A DNA stretch of 64,000 nucleotides from a virus. The DNA lies in IMG/VR virus record IMGVR_UViG_3300032267_001142, positions 96,001 through 160,000 of that record. One strand, 5' to 3'. Positions 3,482-63,880 of the stretch are shown in pieces. Positions within the stretch are counted from its first letter, which is position 1; each line of letters begins with the position of its first letter. A program made the position numbers and the translations under genes. Under the pieces are notes generated by a model. It was given only the letters and a program-made list of their open reading frames with translations. It did no database searches and was not told where the DNA came from.

Positions 3482-5635
3482 TTAAGCTTCACATGATTTA
3501 CAGGCCAAAATGCTTCTTCCTAGCTCTTGGGCGGGAGACGTGCTTCTCTGATAATACAAAGTTTTTACTCCTAATTTCCAAGCCTCAATCAGCAACGCGT
3601 TGACTTCTTTTACTGAAGCTTTTGGATGAATCATTAGATTGATTGACTGAGACTGGTCAATATATTTTTGGCGTTGAGCGGCTTGAATGATGATTTCTTT
3701 TTGGCTAATCTCTCCGAAGGTTTTGAAGACATCCCTCTCGTTGTCAGTCAAGAAATCGAGATGCTGCACTGAGCCGTCGTGAATGAGGATGTTTTGCCAT
3801 ACTTCCTGAGTATCCTTGCTGTGCTTTTTAAGCACTTCTTTCAAATATGGGTTTTTGTATGTGAATTTGCCTTTGGCCAAGTCTTTGACGAAGTAGTTAG
3901 AGTTAAGCGGTTCGATTGATGGGGAGACCTGCCCCAGAATGAACGAGGATGACGTTGTAGGGGCTATCGCCATCGTCGTGACGTTACGCAGCCCATAACC
4001 CTTCAAAAGCGGTGGCTCGCCAAATAGAACGGCCCTAACTTTATTAGCTTCGTGGTTTCTTTCGGCCAAGAACTTGCTGATTTTCACGTTCCACATTTTT
4101 GCGTCGAATGACTCAAAAGCAATGCTTTTTGATTGAAGGAACGAGTGCCAGCCTAATGTTCCCATTCCTAGGGCGCGTTGATTGACGGCAAAGCGGTATG
4201 CAGCTTCCATGAAGCGGATGCCTTTAACTTTGTCGATGTATTCCGACATGACCGCGTCCAAAAAGAGCGCGAAGACTTCTACCGCATCCGTCTGCATCCA
4301 TTCTTCTGCATGCAATAGGTTCATTGAACCTAAATCGCAAACAAAAGACTCGTCCCTATCTGAAGCTAGGGCTATCTCAGAACAGTTATGAACTAGGATG
4401 TTGTTCGCGAAGAAATTTTCAGTCTTTTCTACTGTGATATCGTAAACGGCTTCGACGTGAGTGTATCTTTTAATTTTTAGCGTATTAATGAACCGCTCAG
4501 ATAGTCCCGAAGCATTACCGTTAGCACTTTGTCTAAGAATATCGTCTTCTTTTAAGTCCTGCGCTTCAACGTATCCTCGGTTTTGTGTGTAGATTTTATG
4601 TTCAGGCGTGCATTTTATGACGTTGCCTTGCTCGTCCTCAATTTCAATAATTTCCGTCGACTCTCCCGTTTGCGAGAAGAGCTTAACCGAAGAATAAACG
4701 TCCTTGCCGGTTTCGATGTCAAAGGATTTTACTTCTACTGGTTTATCCATGTAAAAATCCAAATCCTTCATTCGGACAGTTAGTTCTTCACCTTCTACAC
4801 GAATTTGGACTAATGTATCGCCGGTCAGACACAGGTTGGAGGCGTGAATCTTCATTCCTTTATCTTTGTAGACTTGCGGGGCGTTGTTGTTCACCGTGTC
4901 CGAGAACATGATGTAAGGATAGCCAGACTCAAATCTCTTCTTGATGATTTTCGCCCAAAGCTCGCGCTTGTCTTTGTCGCCTGAAATCATGGACTCCATC
5001 CACGCATCGGAAACCGTGACGCCGATGCTCATATGTTGGATAGCGTGACCCTCGTTGCGAATCTGTAGAAACTCGGCAATATCTGGGTGTTCGACGGGAA
5101 GATACGCCGCAAAGTTGCCACGACGAACTCCAGACTGCGATACGACTTCAGTAATTACGTCATATATCTCCATGAAATGAACGGGACCGCTAGAGCGTCC
5201 ACCACCAGAAACTTTAGCGCCGCGCTCACGCAATGCCCCGAAATATCCAGAAGTGCCGCTGCCGTGCTTCGACATCATTCCTATCTCGGAGGCTTTATAG
5301 AGAATCTCCCCCATATCATCTCCGATATAAGAGCCATTACAACTAATCGGAAGTCCTCTTTTGAGGCCGAAGTTCGCCCACACCGGAGAGGCTAAAGAGT
5401 AGTAACCTTTCTTCATGTATCCGACGAACTTCTCCGCGAAGCCTTTTAGCGCTTCGTAGTCGGTGTCGCCGCTTTCGACTTTTCCATTACGGAAGTCTTC
5501 ATAGTCTTTCAGTAGAATCGCTTGGGCAGCGTCAGCTATCTCCTGAATGCGGACTTCTGGAGACTGTCCATTTTGCAAATATCCGCGCTCAAGAAATGTG
5601 CGGGATTTTTCGTTAAGCCAATAAAAATCTTTCAT
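3482..5635 (-). CDS. nrdA: Class Ia ribonucleotide reductase alpha subunit, intein-containing
   Basis: GLPISC, RRGNFAAY, SNL/CSEI, AIAPTTSSS, C-terminal CKSCEA; adjacent to nrdB. Confidence 0.95.
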   Translation of the reverse strand: MKDFYWLNEKSRTFLERGYLQNGQSPEVRIQEIADAAQAILLKDYEDFRNGKVESGDTDYEALKGFAEKFVGYMKKGYYSLASPVWANFGLKRGLPISCNGSYIGDDMGEILYKASEIGMMSKHGSGTSGYFGALRERGAKVSGGGRSSGPVHFMEIYDVITEVVSQSGVRRGNFAAYLPVEHPDIAEFLQIRNEGHAIQHMSIGVTVSDAWMESMISGDKDKRELWAKIIKKRFESGYPYIMFSDTVNNNAPQVYKDKGMKIHASNLCLTGDTLVQIRVEGEELTVRMKDLDFYMDKPVEVKSFDIETGKDVYSSVKLFSQTGESTEIIEIEDEQGNVIKCTPEHKIYTQNRGYVEAQDLKEDDILRQSANGNASGLSERFINTLKIKRYTHVEAVYDITVEKTENFFANNILVHNCSEIALASDRDESFVCDLGSMNLLHAEEWMQTDAVEVFALFLDAVMSEYIDKVKGIRFMEAAYRFAVNQRALGMGTLGWHSFLQSKSIAFESFDAKMWNVKISKFLAERNHEANKVRAVLFGEPPLLKGYGLRNVTTMAIAPTTSSSFILGQVSPSIEPLNSNYFVKDLAKGKFTYKNPYLKEVLKKHSKDTQEVWQNILIHDGSVQHLDFLTDNERDVFKTFGEISQKEIIIQAAQRQKYIDQSQSINLMIHPKASVKEVNALLIEAWKLGVKTLYYQRSTSPAQELGRSILACKSCEA
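4385..4831 (-). mobile_element. Mini-intein (149 aa, no endonuclease domain) in NrdA
   Basis: Starts CLTGDT, block B CTPEHKIY, block F VYDITVEKTENFFANNILVHN, followed by Cys; removal restores the SNLCSEI active-site motif. Confidence 0.93.
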
Positions 5636-11439: not shown

Positions 11440-11468
11440 ATTTTATGAGTTTTGCCGAGGTCTGTCAA
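11440..11468 (-). promoter_or_regulatory. sigma70 promoter, leftward
   Basis: TTGACA-17-TAAAAT. Confidence 0.75.
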
Positions 11469-35686: not shown

Positions 35687-35761
35687 GGTTTGTTGGGAAA
35701 CCGTCAATCCGCCCGCCTGCAAAGCGGGAGATGCCACGTTGGATTCGTGGACAAACCTCCA
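35687..35761 (+). tRNA. tRNA-Cys(GCA)
   Basis: GGTTTGT/ACAAACC, U73, loop CTGCAAA, T-loop TTGGATT. Confidence 0.85.
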
Positions 35762-41328: not shown

Positions 41329-41535
41329 ATGCCTAGTATCAAAGAAAAGAAAGTCGCGTTCCTACTCGAAAGAGGCGCGGCGGTCGCCTTAGACCAGTTC
41401 AATAGGACTGTGTTGAAGCAAGGTGGCGCGTTTTGTCTCGTTGACGACTATGGCCGCGTCACTTGGTATACGAATAAGACTCTGGAAGAAATGCGAGTCA
41501 TAAGAAACGATGCGAGAGTCGAGATTGAATTATGA
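41329..41535 (+). CDS. Small hypothetical protein
   Basis: Start placed at the ATG after tRNA-Gln. Confidence 0.55.
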   Translation: MPSIKEKKVAFLLERGAAVALDQFNRTVLKQGGAFCLVDDYGRVTWYTNKTLEEMRVIRNDARVEIEL

Positions 41536-41789
41536 AAAGCATGCTCCGCAGTGTCATAAAGGCGAACAAGCAGATAGAAGAGGCTAGAAGCATAATTGCC
41601 AAGGTTCAAGCGAAATGCTCACACCCTGACGCGACGCTCGATAAAGTTTACAAAGCGGACACTGGCAACTGGTGCGAGCAGGACAACTCGTATTGGGCAG
41701 AACTGACGTGTAACCGATGCGGCAAATTTTGGTACGCAGACAGCGTAAAGAATCCAGAAGACTACCGCAGGGGCACAGTAAAAGTTTGA
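41532..41789 (+). CDS. Small Zn-binding hypothetical protein
   Basis: CSH...CNRCGK. Confidence 0.65.
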   Translation: MKSMLRSVIKANKQIEEARSIIAKVQAKCSHPDATLDKVYKADTGNWCEQDNSYWAELTCNRCGKFWYADSVKNPEDYRRGTVKV

Positions 41790-41819
41790 CAGCTCAGAAA
41801 GTTTCGATATCATAAAAGC

Positions 41820-42236
41820 ATGAAACCAATCTCCCGTAAGTCCTTCTTTGCTATTTTTGTCGCCCCGCTTTTGGCTCCGTTTTTACCAAAAGCCGTTGCA
41901 AAAATCGTTAATCCAACTAGCGAGCCAACCGCTTCAAAGGTTTTCCTTACAGCGACAGAGGTAACGACAAACAAGAGAATCGGAAGCGTGAGCTTTTACA
42001 GTAAGTATCTTGCTAACGGACGAACGGAAGTCGCCGATAGAGCGCTGGCTCTCTTAGTTAGGCGGGCCGTCGATAGTGGCGCGTCGCACTATGTCGTCAC
42101 ATGGTCAGATGCGAACGCTCAGCGGGCATATTTCCATGAAAAATTTAACATACCGCTGAAAAACCTAGACTCTATGTTAGGAAAGTCCGAGCACTGGCTG
42201 AGCCGAGCTGAATTCGAGACACAATATCCTCTTTGA
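41820..42236 (+). CDS. Hypothetical protein with Tat-like/hydrophobic N-terminus
   Basis: ISRKSFFAIFVAPLLAPFL. Confidence 0.65.
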   Translation: MKPISRKSFFAIFVAPLLAPFLPKAVAKIVNPTSEPTASKVFLTATEVTTNKRIGSVSFYSKYLANGRTEVADRALALLVRRAVDSGASHYVVTWSDANAQRAYFHEKFNIPLKNLDSMLGKSEHWLSRAEFETQYPL

Positions 42237-42378
42237 TGCTCTTTATACCTTATTCCAACGATTTTTTACTTCAGTCTCGATGCCGCCTCGGCGGAGGATG
42301 TAAATATGGGAAAATAATCGAGTTGGATGCTCGTTTTGAAAACGAGATAGGAATTATAGTAATTCGATAACGAATTAT

Positions 42379-42455
42379 GTCCTGTGAGGGAGCAAGTTGA
42401 ACCCCACAATCTGCAAAATTGTTGTTGCACGGCGCGATACCGTGACAGGACTCCA
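42379..42455 (+). tRNA. tRNA-Cys(GCA), second copy
   Basis: GTCCTGT/ACAGGAC, U73, loop CTGCAAA, T-loop CGCGATA. Confidence 0.85.
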
Positions 42456-42457
42456 AT

Positions 42458-42802
42458 ATGAAACCCGAAGCGCAAAGAAAAGCTATCATTAAGTTCTGTG
42501 GCTGGAAAGACATCTCCGATAGCTGCCGCTATCGTTTAATGACTTTAGCAGTGATTCGAGACGAGCGGATGTTTAACGTCCACGACCCTTTGACGGATTT
42601 GAACGCGATGCGCGAGGCGGAGAGGATGTTGTCAGTAAAGCAAGCGAAACTTTATGTCGAGCTTTTGGGTGAGATAGTTCTGGACAACGGGGGCTGTTAC
42701 TTCAATAAGAACAAATATATGGCATTCGTGGCTCTAAATTCCACGGCTGCGCAGCGCGCCGAAGCTTTTCTAAAAGCTCTTGGACTTTGGACAGAAGATT
42801 AA
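42458..42802 (+). CDS. Hypothetical protein (ABA-sandwich-like), similar to 53579..53944
   Basis: GW...DP..DLNAM.EAE..L...A.AAQRAEAFL. Confidence 0.7.
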   Translation: MKPEAQRKAIIKFCGWKDISDSCRYRLMTLAVIRDERMFNVHDPLTDLNAMREAERMLSVKQAKLYVELLGEIVLDNGGCYFNKNKYMAFVALNSTAAQRAEAFLKALGLWTED

Positions 42803-42807
42803 AAGTG

Positions 42808-42835
42808 TTGACGTTTTAGCAAAAGAGCCTAGAAT
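42808..42835 (+). promoter_or_regulatory. sigma70-type promoter for the large ncRNA
   Basis: TTGACG-16-TAGAAT. Confidence 0.7.
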
Positions 42836-42841
42836 GTAACC

Positions 42842-43815
42842 ATGCGATTGAGACAGGAAACTCTCTCGAAAGCAACAAAAGGGGGCATGACCTCTTAGAT
42901 AACGCGCCGCAAGGCGAAGAAAGGCTGAAAGCCCTACATTTTCAGCCGCCGTTTACGGTCACTTATGCAACCGTAGTTCCTCGGTTTACAATGCCAAACA
43001 TTGTGGACTAGACTATCGAGGTTCCGGCGTCCCGAAAGGGGCGTTTCCAGACGTGAAACTCTGGTAAACGGGTTCAAACTTAAATAGTCGAGAACGAAGC
43101 GTAGTTGTTTATGTCGAGCCTAGCAAGCAAGACGCGAACAGCAGCCCAAACGGGAGTGGACTCGTGAGAGTTTATGACCGAGAAAGCCGTCGAAATCGCC
43201 GCTGGCGAAAGATATCATGTTGTGTTGTATTGGGTGGTCGAAAGGTCATCTAGCGACTGGACAGACGCAACATAATAGGGATAAGTATTTGGAACTTACA
43301 AGAAAAAGTTCTGTCCACGTTAGCGCGATAAGCAGATTAAGTCGCTGGCCTTCGGGCAACAGCGAGCGTTAAACCTCTCAAGGGAATAACGTTTGGCGTC
43401 AGAGTAAGATTGGTTGGCCTTTAGCGGGGTTAGCTGAGACGAAAAAACGCTGAGTAGCGCGACGGTTAATGGATATGCTACCATTCAAAAGCATCTGTGA
43501 GAAATAGCGGTCGAAAGGTCGCTGGATAACAAGATAACACATACGTCTTGTAAAGGTTCTCGAATCGAAGCATAGTCTCAGCTTTGATAATTTGGTCAGC
43601 GGGCGAGCTATTTGAACGCAGTCGTTTGCAAAACTTCTATAGCAAGGTGAGATTCCTTGGCTGACCTCCATCTCATCAGTAGCGTATTACGCTAGTTTGG
43701 CTGCGGCCCATTGGGTCGCGAATTAAAGAGTTCGGGTTGCTCTGAGCTTAGTAGATTGGCAGGACGGAGGTAATAATATCCGCGCTTGTTAGTTGCTGGA
43801 CGGGGAGTTAGCCCC
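42842..43815 (+). ncRNA. Large (~970 nt) highly structured non-coding RNA, GOLLD/ROOL-like or novel
   Basis: No + strand ORF of 60 aa or more; own promoter; many GNRA/UUCG hairpins and long-range helices; ends just before tRNA-Ala(CGC). Confidence 0.7.
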
Positions 43816-43824
43816 TTGAGAAAT

Positions 43825-43899
43825 GGGTCATTGGTGAAATAGAATCACGACGCACTCGCAATGCGTAGTCGAGGGTGCGACTCCCTCATGTATCCACCA
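43825..43899 (+). tRNA. tRNA-Ala(CGC), bulged acceptor stem
   Basis: GGGTCAT/ATG(T)ATCC with G3:U70, loop CTCGCAA, T-loop TGCGACT. Confidence 0.83.
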
Positions 43900-43933
43900 C
43901 AATTTTTACGTCGGAAACACAAAGAAAACATAA

Positions 43934-44008
43934 ATGCCACTCAATATCTTAACTCTTTCGGTAGTGATGTCCGCGTTACTAATCTTAACTAGCCGCCGTA
44001 TTCGATGA
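43934..44008 (+). CDS. Tiny hydrophobic peptide (24 aa)
   Basis: MPLNILTLSVVMSALLILTSRRIR*, ATGA-coupled to the next gene. Confidence 0.35.
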   Translation: MPLNILTLSVVMSALLILTSRRIR

Positions 44009-44505
44009 AATTTTTCAAGAAAGTCAAAACCATTACCTCCAAAGAGGGCGAGCTGCACTTCGAGCGCTGGGCGATTTTCGAGTCAAAGTGGCTCTCGTGG
44101 TATATCCACAGAATACACAAGGCAGACAGGGACCATTTACATTCCTATCCTTGGAATTTTCTGTCACTAATCTTGAAGGGCTGTTATCTCGAAGAGAACG
44201 CTTACGATACAGCAGATGGAAGTTTCTGCACAGGCTTAAAGATAAAGAGCCCGTTCACAGTCACTTACTGTAACAAATCTAAATTTCATAAAATCAACAC
44301 CATCATCTCTGGTCCGGTTTACACGACGATGTTTGTGTGGGGCGACACCCAGAAGTGGTTTTATCGGGTAGGAAAGAAGAGAATTCCTTTTGAGGAATAT
44401 CGCGAAATCAAAGCCGCAGCCAAAGAGGCGGGGCTTTCTATCGAGGAGTATATCTTCAAATATGAGATTGGGCTCTTGACTCCGTCGCAAAAACGAGTAG
44501 ACTAG
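44005..44505 (+). CDS. Cupin-like hypothetical protein
   Basis: YIHRIH..D.DHLHSYPWNF.S.IL.G.Y.E. Confidence 0.7.
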   Translation: MKFFKKVKTITSKEGELHFERWAIFESKWLSWYIHRIHKADRDHLHSYPWNFLSLILKGCYLEENAYDTADGSFCTGLKIKSPFTVTYCNKSKFHKINTIISGPVYTTMFVWGDTQKWFYRVGKKRIPFEEYREIKAAAKEAGLSIEEYIFKYEIGLLTPSQKRVD

Positions 44506-44517
44506 TAAAAATCAAAC

Positions 44518-44904
44518 ATGAAATCATTCCTAAAACTTGCAATCATCGCCGTCGCGTCACTATCAATCGCTGGGTGCCAGCCAGAATCAGACGTAGCCGC
44601 CTATAATGTTTCGCAGGCCGCGCATAATTTTGAAGTCAACAGACGAGTCGTGTTCTACAACGGCATCACAGGAGATTACATACTCACCATCGAGGGTCTT
44701 CTATCTGTGACGCCAGAAGATAAGCGCCTCTCGGTTATCGTAAAGACTGGGCCGAATCAGTATAAGAAGCACTATCTTGGTGTTTCTGATAACGTGACTT
44801 GGTTCTGCGAACAAATCGAATCCGTTCCAGCGTCGCCTTTTCATTATCGTGTCATCTTCCGTCCTACCACGATTATCCCAGATGTCGAAGTTAGGACGCG
44901 CTAA
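44518..44904 (+). CDS. Putative lipoprotein
   Basis: Lipobox SIAGC; NFEV.RRVVFYNGITG.Y...IEG. Confidence 0.8.
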   Translation: MKSFLKLAIIAVASLSIAGCQPESDVAAYNVSQAAHNFEVNRRVVFYNGITGDYILTIEGLLSVTPEDKRLSVIVKTGPNQYKKHYLGVSDNVTWFCEQIESVPASPFHYRVIFRPTTIIPDVEVRTR

Positions 44905-44922
44905 GAGAAGTTTAGTCAAAAT

Positions 44923-45006
44923 GTCGGTGTGAGTTAATGGCGAATAGCACAGCCTCTCCGCTTAAAACGGATACTTTTGCAGGTGCAAGTCCTGTCACCG
45001 ATACCA
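44923..45006 (+). tRNA. tRNA-Leu(TAA), enlarged D region, short variable loop
   Basis: GTCGGTG/CACCGAT, loop CTTAAAA, T-loop TGCAAGT. Confidence 0.75.
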
Positions 45007-52374: not shown

Positions 52375-52976
52375 TGAGTCCCAGACAAATATCATCGACC
52401 CTTTTCTCTGGTCGAATCGTGGGGGTTTTGCTGGTGTTGATTGCTCTTTTTGACTTTTCTATCCAAGTCGCGTCGGCAGAGACGTATAAGTCATTTTTTC
52501 TCAAATATAGCCACCTAACTTTCTCTCCTATAGATTGTTTGTCAATGATAGTGGCGGGACTTATTCTGATGGTCGGAATAATCGACAGGGATTGGAAAAT
52601 GTGGGTCCATACGATAGGAGGCGCGGCCCTAATCTCATTTAATTCAGCGCGAGTAATTTGGGAATTGTTAGTTGAAGGAGGAAATAATGGTGCGGTGCCG
52701 ATAGCGATATTCGGCACGTTCGGAACTTGGGTCGTGATAAGGTTGATGTTTCCAAAAAGACCCCTTACACTGATGCTTCCTTATGTGATGATGTTCACTT
52801 CTTTGGTCATCTTCTTTATCGACTTTGCTCATTACGCGTCTATAGCTTTGGTATCCGGTTATAGCGCTACGGCACCGCATTCTTTGTTTGTATGTATTCT
52901 TCTCTTCTGTATAGGTTTGGTGGCCAAACACTATAATGAGACGCTTTTGAGCGACGGAAGAGTGAATGCGGCTTAA
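52374..52976 (+). CDS. Multi-pass membrane protein
   Basis: 5-6 hydrophobic segments; TAATG-coupled. Confidence 0.75.
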   Translation: MSPRQISSTLFSGRIVGVLLVLIALFDFSIQVASAETYKSFFLKYSHLTFSPIDCLSMIVAGLILMVGIIDRDWKMWVHTIGGAALISFNSARVIWELLVEGGNNGAVPIAIFGTFGTWVVIRLMFPKRPLTLMLPYVMMFTSLVIFFIDFAHYASIALVSGYSATAPHSLFVCILLFCIGLVAKHYNETLLSDGRVNAA

Positions 52977-53022
52977 CGGATAAGTGTTGACCTTTTTCTA
53001 AAAGGGGATACAGTGGTTAGTA

Positions 53023-53312
53023 ACGCAATCGCTAAGCGACTCTACGCGCAATGCCGTAACCAGTGCGGTAAAGTGAGGAAAGTTCTTGGCAGCCGAGAGA
53101 ACGACAGGAGAGCGCCCGCTAGCAATAGCGGCGTTCGTTAATACTGCAAGTTAGCTGCAACCCGAACAGTCCGATGGTAGCTCTCCCAAATGAGGACGGG
53201 TCGGGGCGGTAGGATTCACACCCTACGGGCGCTGTAAAGCGTTCAGTCAAATGTAGAGTTGAAGTCCCGCAAGGGACCAGACCAGAACCGAGGCTATAGC
53301 TAGCGATTGCGT
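53023..53312 (+). ncRNA. rnpB: RNase P RNA (290 nt, reduced specificity domain)
   Basis: P1 ACGCAATCGCTA/TAGCGATTGCGT; P2 CGACTCTAC/GTAGAGTTG; GAGGAAAGTTC and CAGAACCGAGGCTAT with covarying P4 (TCTTGG/CCGAGG); P6-, P15-, P18- and P19-like helices. Confidence 0.9.
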
Positions 53313-53354
53313 ATCTTTTCTTACAAATAATGATTATTAAGACTAACAGGTGAT

Positions 53355-53579
53355 ATGGCAGCTAAAAGAAAGCCCGCACGAGGCAAGAAAAAGCTAAATA
53401 AGTCCGCTCTTAAAGAAGGGCTTGAGGCGGCACGCTCATTGACTAGAGAGCGATGGATGCATGAAGTAACGAGCGCCCTTACTTTCCTTCTGACAGGTAA
53501 AGACGACGAAAGAATCGTCCGACTATGTGGGGCTCTTCAAGACGCTATACGCTGGAGCAACTTCAGCGACGATAAATAA
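53355..53579 (+). CDS. Small hypothetical protein
   Basis: ORF with basic N-terminus. Confidence 0.6.
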   Translation: MAAKRKPARGKKKLNKSALKEGLEAARSLTRERWMHEVTSALTFLLTGKDDERIVRLCGALQDAIRWSNFSDDK

Positions 53580-53944
53580 TGACTGTCAATAATACGAAAC
53601 TCAATCTCTTGATTGCGGAGCTAGGAGGATGGAAGGAACTGCCCCAACATGAATTTGTAAAAGTGTATCAACCTTGGCAAGCGAAAGTTTATAGCAGCAA
53701 ATATAAGCACATCCGAAACTATGGAGCTTCACTTGACGCGTGTGCCGAATTTGAGAAAAGCTTGACCGCTTTACAAAAACTGAAATTCGCTTTCGTTCTT
53801 TGCAGCGTTGTGGGTAGTCAAGGAATGCAACACGGTATGCTAGTAGAAGATGTGAACCGAATCGCGTTTGCAACGCCAATCCAACGCTGCCTAGCATATA
53901 TCCGCACTGTCGCGCCAGAACGAGAGAAGGAGATTTACGATTAA
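53579..53944 (+). CDS. Hypothetical protein (ABA-sandwich-like), similar to 42458..42802
   Basis: GW...NY..SLDAC.EFE..L...ATP.QRC.AY. Confidence 0.7.
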   Translation: MTVNNTKLNLLIAELGGWKELPQHEFVKVYQPWQAKVYSSKYKHIRNYGASLDACAEFEKSLTALQKLKFAFVLCSVVGSQGMQHGMLVEDVNRIAFATPIQRCLAYIRTVAPEREKEIYD

Positions 53945-58108: not shown

Positions 58109-58522
58109 GGGGTAGCAAGGATTCGACAAATAAGACGAGTCTAAACCCGCAAGCCGCTTATGGTAGTTAGACTGCGTCAAATCTCTACCAAGCATAAACG
58201 TCTCAAACGTAATTGCAAAAGTGAAGACCGCTTGGAGCGCCTTCCGTAATAACCTTACGGTTGCCTTCGGGAGCTTTTCGCCCGTCGTGGCCTAATCACG
58301 GCCACCCGTATCATTTCCGATTTCTGCTAGGACTTAGATGCGACATTAGCAGGATTTACGAAATAAGTTCGCATATTCTTATTCGTCACATACGATATAC
58401 GCTGTGGTCAGTTAGGTTTTGTCATTTTAGACAACTGGCCGAAAGCAAAAAAGAAACTAAGCTTGTAGAAGGTCTGATAAAAATTGTTTGGACAGGGGCT
58501 TCGATGCCCCTCTACTCCACCA
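58109..58522 (+). ncRNA. ssrA: tmRNA (414 nt); tag ORF 58215-58295, AKVKTAWSAFRNNLTVAFGSFSPVVA*
   Basis: GGGGTAG/CTACTCC acceptor with G3:U70, 5' GGATTCGAC, 3' GACAGGGGCTTCGATGCCCC...ACCA; GCA resume codon after TAATT. Confidence 0.92.
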
Positions 58523-63841: not shown

Positions 63842-63880
63842 TGCGTTGACTTCCGTTGCAAAACTCGATAAAATAACAAA

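Follow-up and report, generated by a model that had tools for sequence, protein, structure and literature searches.

A divergent member of the GOLLD family of large RNAs in the tRNA array of a phage genome

The locus, its promoter-like site and its coding potential

The window examined here, a stretch of 64,000 nt, comprises bases 96001-160000 of a complete virus record of 186,105 bp with direct terminal repeats. The genome codes for rIIA, an intein-containing ribonucleotide reductase, NAMPT and an RNA ligase, and in the window ARAGORN identified a + strand array of 24 tRNA genes plus a tmRNA (30835-58522). The intein lies inside the large subunit of the reductase (3482-5635, minus strand; Intein_splicing, E = 5.8e-15), and the tmRNA (58109-58522; Rfam 95.3 bits) has a predicted tag peptide that is unusually long, at 26 residues, and ends in VVA. 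No RNase P family matched 52700-53600 at E <= 1 (cmscan with permissive filters, a search that a strongly reduced form could escape). Among the tRNA genes of the array sits a GOLLD RNA gene, flanked by genes and tRNAs that all lie on the + strand. The features of the locus are as follows.

42458-42802, + strand: ORF upstream of the promoter-like site, a real gene with 158 tblastn relatives
42808-42835, + strand: sigma-70-type promoter-like site, TTGACG-16 nt-TAGAAT, with a predicted start near 42842
42842-43214, + strand: presumed GOLLD 5' domain with several hairpins capped by GNRA loops, filling the 373 nt between predicted start and Rfam match
43215-43584, + strand: GOLLD conserved 3' domain (Rfam RF02032)
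43215-43275, + strand: P13/P14, within the GOLLD 3' domain
43276-43320, + strand: J13/15 linker of about 45 nt, without a tRNA
43432-43440, + strand: 5' strand of the provisionally assigned L27 pseudoknot, pairing with 43575-43583 (loop L27 and part of P27)
43594-43670, + strand: tRNA-Cys(GCA)-like element (ARAGORN), 77 nt, with U73 and an encoded CCA
43671-43824, + strand: structured spacer of 154 nt between the tRNA-like element and tRNA-Ala
43825-43895, + strand: tRNA-Ala(CGC), the next array gene (ARAGORN; Rfam tRNA 44.6 bits)
11440-11468 (minus strand), 42808-42835 (+ strand) and 63846-63874 (+ strand): sites of an extended promoter-like motif, all between ORFs

The initial annotation, made from the letters alone, had described positions 42842-43815 as one promoter-driven, ORF-free and highly structured RNA of about 970 nt. 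The promoter-like site is present where it had been placed, in the 40-nt gap that follows the stop codon of ORF 42458-42802. A sigma-70-like match is by itself weak evidence for a promoter, with eight such matches in a 3.5-kb region vs 4.1 +/- 2.0 in shuffles. An extended form of the motif, TTGAC-N6-8-GCAAAA-N4-6-TANAAT, occurs at exactly three sites in the 186-kb genome, while a reversed control gave none, and it may be the mark of a small promoter class.

The absence of + strand ORFs of 60 aa or more from 42842-43815 also held up, the longest being 51 aa, with 14-20 stop codons in each + frame. An ATG ORF of 90 aa is present on the minus strand (43399-43671), and one might suppose that it, or a set of small peptides, is what the locus encodes. 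This ORF, however, overlaps the tRNA-like element as well as the stretch in which the GOLLD model is best conserved, it runs against the orientation of every flanking gene and tRNA, and neither it nor three other local ORFs had a Pfam match at E <= 0.1. We give a protein-coding role next to no probability.

Identity and extent of the GOLLD RNA

When the whole window was compared with Rfam 15 using cmscan, GOLLD was the sole match apart from tRNAs and the tmRNA. The match to RF02032 at 43215-43584 covers model positions 1-416 of 416, is not truncated, and scores 150.6 bits (gathering score 150) with an E-value of 3.5e-40. It was reproduced by a permissive search of 42500-44200 and by a search of the whole genome, in which GOLLD is present in one copy. 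The margin over the gathering score is thin, yet judged by the E-value of this sequence match homology is beyond doubt, and the locus is almost certainly a member of the GOLLD family. Besides GOLLD and tRNA, the permissive search of 42500-44200 gave just a weak Tymo_tRNA-like match on tRNA-Ala, while the models for ROOL, OLE and group I/II introns gave no match at E <= 1. Of the initial proposal of a GOLLD/ROOL-like RNA, the GOLLD half thus stands on a full-length match above gathering and the ROOL half falls; OLE and the introns, which had been named as further candidates for comparison, fall with it. That annotation had also reasoned that a strong full-length GOLLD match would make this a known class, which is the outcome here.

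The alignment bears out this assignment in detail. A manual count along its NC line found 78 of the 89 consensus pairs (88%) to be canonical. The 11 non-canonical pairs comprise three in one small helix, three in the long-range [[ ]] helix and five that are scattered; the small consensus helix in which three pairs are flagged is missing from this copy. The invariant motifs GAGTAG (43452), TGGATAA (43523) and TCTCAG (43576) are separated by gaps of 65 and 46 nt, which is the spacing of the Rfam consensus, and the deviation of 43215-43584 from the model is concentrated in the Rfam insert region. The linker J13/15 varies among GOLLDs, some of which carry a tRNA there. Several elements picked out by eye in the initial annotation have a place in this scheme. 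Its four tetraloop hairpins are all present (starting at 42905, 43031, 43348 and 43159), with GCC-TTCG-GGC corresponding to a further helix of the GOLLD model, and its duplicated motif, GGTCGAAAGGTC, is found at both 43236 and 43509, where the model has its two conserved hairpins of the GAAA type.

Two long-range helices had also been proposed, and both are perfectly complementary. The first, 43432-43440 with 43575-43583, is a 9-nt complementarity whose 5' strand Infernal places on the consensus GAGAG segment. The cryo-EM structure of GOLLD env-38 shows loop L27 paired with the P23 and J24/26 region (PMC12286853), and on sequence we provisionally equate the two as the family's L27 contact. The second, 43594-43600 with 43660-43666, proved to be something other than a long-range helix of the RNA, namely the 7-bp acceptor stem of the tRNA-like element.

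The Rfam GOLLD model spans the conserved 3' region only. In env-38 this region comprises residues 421-833; the first 420 residues make up a 5' domain of their own, which is poorly conserved (PMC12286853). The corresponding interval here, 42842-43214, is comparable in length (373 nt vs the 420-nt 5' region of env-38; PMC12286853) and folds with a minimum free energy of -128.2 kcal/mol, a z-score of -4.07; none of 100 shuffles folded equally well. The earlier description of the stretch as highly structured is borne out throughout, since 42842-43584 as a whole (z = -3.74) and 43671-43824 (z = -3.44) likewise fold better than dinucleotide shuffles. As 373 well-folded, non-coding nucleotides lie between the predicted start and the match, with a protein gene upstream, we take 42842-43584 as the GOLLD RNA, which makes it about 743 nt long. 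The reading of the whole stretch as one RNA of about 970 nt does not survive this division: GOLLD extends to about 43584, and the last ~230 nt lie outside it as separate elements, the tRNA-like element and the spacer.

Searches with blastn, nhmmer and lineage profile HMMs, a test of low power, found no sequence similarity between 42842-43214 and other GOLLD 5' domains. GOLLD 5' domains are lineage-specific (PMC12286853), and in our hands profiles of one GOLLD lineage mostly missed the 5' domains of the others. Because such profiles mostly fail between lineages, the fact that 42842-43214 cannot be aligned says little. Its homology to GOLLD 5' domains is presumed. The alifold consensus of the 5' domain from the available lineages was too weak for a powerful covariance model, and the supplementary GOLLD alignment of PMC12286853 contains the 3' end only.

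To place this copy among other GOLLDs, we collected 116 IMG/VR loci with a three-part GOLLD motif and searched 114 of them with the Rfam model. GOLLD was confirmed in 75 of the 114: 72 matched at full length with 172-335 bits, two scored 181-183 bits, and one was truncated with 60 bits. RF02032 was specific in this setting, with no match in the 39 IMG/VR records where the motif occurred by chance nor in 14 control genomes. Among the 76 copies compared, the score of 150.6 bits here falls below all 72 full-length matches, the truncated copy standing at 60 bits, and the 3' domain is the shortest (370 nt vs 382-492). Of its nucleotide sequence, blastn, nhmmer and the lineage profile HMMs recognized the last 100-150 nt only, a limitation not confined to this copy.

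The truncated copy comes from a provirus contig in IMG/VR (L167; 82,618 bp) and covers model positions 307-415. A tRNA-Met ends 20 nt 5' of its GAGTAG motif and a tRNA-Ile lies 50 nt 3' of the GOLLD end, so that it looks like a remnant left by a deletion or an insertion.

The low score, the short 3' domain and the missing consensus helix would also be expected if the RNA studied here were a decaying remnant, recognizable in its 3' domain only and no longer of use to the phage, and the phage relatives reached through neighbouring proteins have no GOLLD in the DNA recovered. Against decay, the match runs from end to end with 88% of consensus pairs canonical, whereas the genuinely truncated provirus copy matches only a fragment of the model; no invariant motif has been lost, and the L27 pseudoknot complementarity is preserved; and the upstream part folds far better than shuffles, with a matched promoter motif directly in front of it. 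We consider decay improbable.

The search for close relatives of the GOLLD locus, by flanking proteins, phage markers, a protein collection and DNA patterns in IMG/VR and JGI metagenomes, returned none. In blastn against GenBank phages only the tRNA-Ala matched, and megablast of 20 kb of the window had no match. The IMG/VR loci around homologues of two flanking proteins showed neither synteny nor GOLLD. Homologues of the 166-aa downstream protein in a set of 5.8 billion proteins reach at most 64% identity, and their contigs have no GOLLD; rIIA has no relatives in IMG/VR and at most 27% identity to those of cultured phages. GOLLD was absent from the available DNA of the nearest phages recovered, and one lineage-specific pattern in IMG/VR and two patterns in JGI metagenomes gave chance matches only.

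Two observations were made in the course of these searches. The pattern CTGAGAC..GAGTAG..GTCTCAG occurs in at least 120 JGI/ENA metagenome contigs (L289-L368 and further ones), many of them from the human gut and many with a nearly constant spacing of about 145 nt; the TGGATAA motif of GOLLD is absent from all of those listed, and an unrelated repeated element may be among them. The second is a Pistol ribozyme match (L286:8881-8945, 39.2 bits vs a gathering score of 34.5) in a Logan contig; this contig comes from a distantly related phage and also bears genes for NAMPT, R2K, macro-domain and histidine-phosphatase proteins.

The lack of nucleotide-level relatives in IMG/VR and JGI metagenomes could be read in favour of what the initial annotation held out as an option, a new class of structured RNA that is unrelated to GOLLD and extends some 970 nt from the promoter to tRNA-Ala. 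So could the 373 nt at the 5' end and the 154 nt at the 3' end, which have no Rfam match and both fold better than shuffles. The central 370 nt, however, fit all 416 positions of the GOLLD model, the stretch is split at 43594-43670 by a CCA-bearing, tRNA-shaped element, and 5' domains that differ between lineages (PMC12286853), to the point of being mutually undetectable in our own test, are what a GOLLD would have. An unrelated class is highly improbable, and the option of a new large class was wrong for 43215-43584: the RNA belongs to a class already described, of which it is an unusually divergent representative, and does not constitute a new kind.

The tRNA-Cys-like element and the spacer

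The tRNA-Cys-like element begins 10 nt 3' of the GOLLD match and 13 nt 3' of TCTCAG. Its U73 is the discriminator base of cysteine tRNAs. Its acceptor stem is complete (7/7 bp), as is the T stem (5/5), and the D stem has 3 bp, but the anticodon stem forms only four of its six pairs, being interrupted internally by U.U and C.U. The T loop has the sequence UGAGAUU, and GG is absent from the D loop. The element therefore departs from a canonical elongator tRNA in its anticodon stem, its T-psi-C loop and its D loop, and also in having no match to the Rfam tRNA model at E <= 1.

Part of this oddity is shared. The element is paralogous to the tRNA-Cys gene at 42379-42455, with which it has the odd D loop and the G55 T loop in common, and where the acceptor and D stems of the two differ, the changes are compensatory. 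The GG-less D loop that the two 77-nt paralogues have in common is AGCNANTTGAA. ARAGORN calls three tRNA-Cys(GCA) genes in all (42379-42455, 43594-43670 and 35687-35761), each with an encoded UCCA end and each below the Rfam gathering score for tRNA. Since the odd loops are common to other tRNAs of the same phage, they do not prove the element at 43594-43670 to be non-functional. The anticodon stem of the paralogue at 42379-42455 is perfect.

The 154 nt between the element and tRNA-Ala fold into a closed multi-hairpin structure with a minimum free energy of -58.4 kcal/mol. This spacer has no match in Rfam at E <= 1, contains no tRNA by ARAGORN, and yielded no homologue.

The simplest alternative for this region is that 43594-43670 is a third functional tRNA-Cys gene and 43671-43824 plain spacer, neither having a functional link to GOLLD. 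The ARAGORN call, the U73 and CCA, the D and T loops matching those of the paralogue, and the frequency with which tRNA arrays are the setting of GOLLD (PMC12286853) all agree with it. The two internal mismatches in the anticodon stem, set against the perfect paralogue, and the missing Rfam tRNA match speak the other way, as do the two other tRNA-Cys(GCA) genes that the phage already has and a spacer that folds better than shuffles. This alternative is a real possibility, though a somewhat doubtful one. It would in any case leave one point untouched, since RNase P would set the 3' end of GOLLD just as well if the tRNA at +13 were an ordinary one.

tRNAs adjoin GOLLD elsewhere as well. In 22 of the 75 confirmed loci a same-strand tRNA starts 11-50 nt 3' of TCTCAG, and these downstream tRNAs are of five identities (Ala-CGC, Ile-UAU, Met, Leu-UAA and Pro). 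A tRNA is flush with the 5' end in 15 of the 75, and tRNAs adjoin both ends in 12. These counts suggest that tRNA-processing enzymes often set the ends of GOLLD. Forty-one of the 75 loci have a U-tract after the 3' motif; none is found here. The idea that GOLLD ends in either a U-tract or a tRNA was tried and found unsupported (Fisher p = 0.14, with lineages that are not independent). Another 11 loci have a tRNA-Ala(CGC) after GOLLD, but it is unrelated to the copy at 43825, with only about 40 of 70 positions identical.

Proposed expression and comparison with known systems

The explanation that we favour overall, and hold to be quite probable, is a GOLLD RNA of about 743 nt with its own promoter, a 3' end made by RNase P and, by homology, a cage as its assembled form. 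Its parts are not equally firm. The RNA would start near 42842 from its own sigma-70-type promoter. No terminator-like site was found on the + strand in 41500-45000, and because no intrinsic terminator follows GOLLD, transcription would continue into the tRNA-Cys-like element and tRNA-Ala. RNase P would then cut at 43593/43594, the 5' end of the tRNA-like element, and so release the GOLLD 3' end. The nearest tRNA-shaped substrate lies just 10 nt past the GOLLD match, and tRNA-Ala 240 nt farther. The suggestion in the initial annotation that RNase P frees the RNA by cutting at a tRNA 3' of it is plausible when moved to this nearer site; for co-transcription and RNase P end formation taken together we see the chances as evenly balanced.

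GOLLD env-38 forms an RNA-only cage, a homo-14-mer with kissing loops L20-J13/15, L21a and L21b (PMC12286853). After this model, the mature RNA would self-assemble, protein-free, into a homo-oligomeric cage, a ring of 3' domains capped by the lineage-specific 5' domains. That so divergent a copy forms such a cage is, by homology with env-38, somewhat more likely than not. In lytic growth the GOLLD of a Lactobacillus brevis prophage builds up, and the phage can be produced without it (PMC7567579, citing Weinberg et al., 2009).

A bolder version of the favoured explanation would make this a distinct, compact GOLLD subtype, in which a 5' cap that cannot be aligned gives a different cage geometry or stoichiometry and the 3' end is coupled to a non-decoding tRNA-Cys mimic and a 154-nt module as one processing or cargo unit. 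We regard this as speculative and unlikely.

The proposed 3' end has a functional analogue in the MALAT1/mascRNA processing of eukaryotes, where RNase P, by cleaving an adjoining tRNA-like structure, generates the mature 3' terminus of the long RNA. Here too a long non-coding RNA lies directly 5' of a tRNA-like structure, but the likeness is one of function only, with no homology, and cleavage at our locus is proposed from the 10-nt geometry and the absence of a terminator. With ROOL and OLE the GOLLD described here shares its large size, its freedom from ORFs and its high degree of structure, and ROOL is moreover phage-borne, found near tRNA genes and cage-forming; by the model searches of 42500-44200 (E <= 1) the RNA described here nevertheless belongs to neither family.

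A setting in a phage tRNA array is typical of GOLLD (PMC12286853, PMC6582537). The GOLLD of Mycobacterium likewise lies in a tRNA array, which there has some 30 tRNA genes and is horizontally mobile (Behra et al., 2019, PMC6582537; Morgado et al., 2020, cited in PMC12286853). That locus resembles ours in that GOLLD is flanked by tRNA genes on either side and accompanied by a pseudo-tRNA. The pseudo-tRNA of Mycobacterium is inside the GOLLD gene, whereas here the tRNA-like element lies past the 3' end and the linker is without one, and the mycobacterial array was acquired by a bacterium, while that described here is part of a free phage genome.

Few natural RNAs are known to form cages free of protein, GOLLD being one of them. 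The copy reported here widens the sequence range of the family and, at a compact 743 nt, is a variant that structural studies could use. Compared with env-38 (Kretsch et al., 2025, PMC12286853), it is shorter (about 743 vs 833 nt), with a 3' domain of 370 nt and a linker of 45 nt, one small helix in the P20-P23 region is unformed, and its presumed 5' domain cannot be aligned to those of env-38-like copies. Like env-38, it has the full conserved 3' domain: the helices, the hairpins of the GAAA and CAAAA types, the motifs GAGUAG, UGGAUAA and UCUCAG, and the complementarity provisionally assigned to the L27 pseudoknot. A structured region of about 400 nt, presumed to be the 5' domain, lies in front of it, and the gene is phage-encoded and adjoins tRNA genes.
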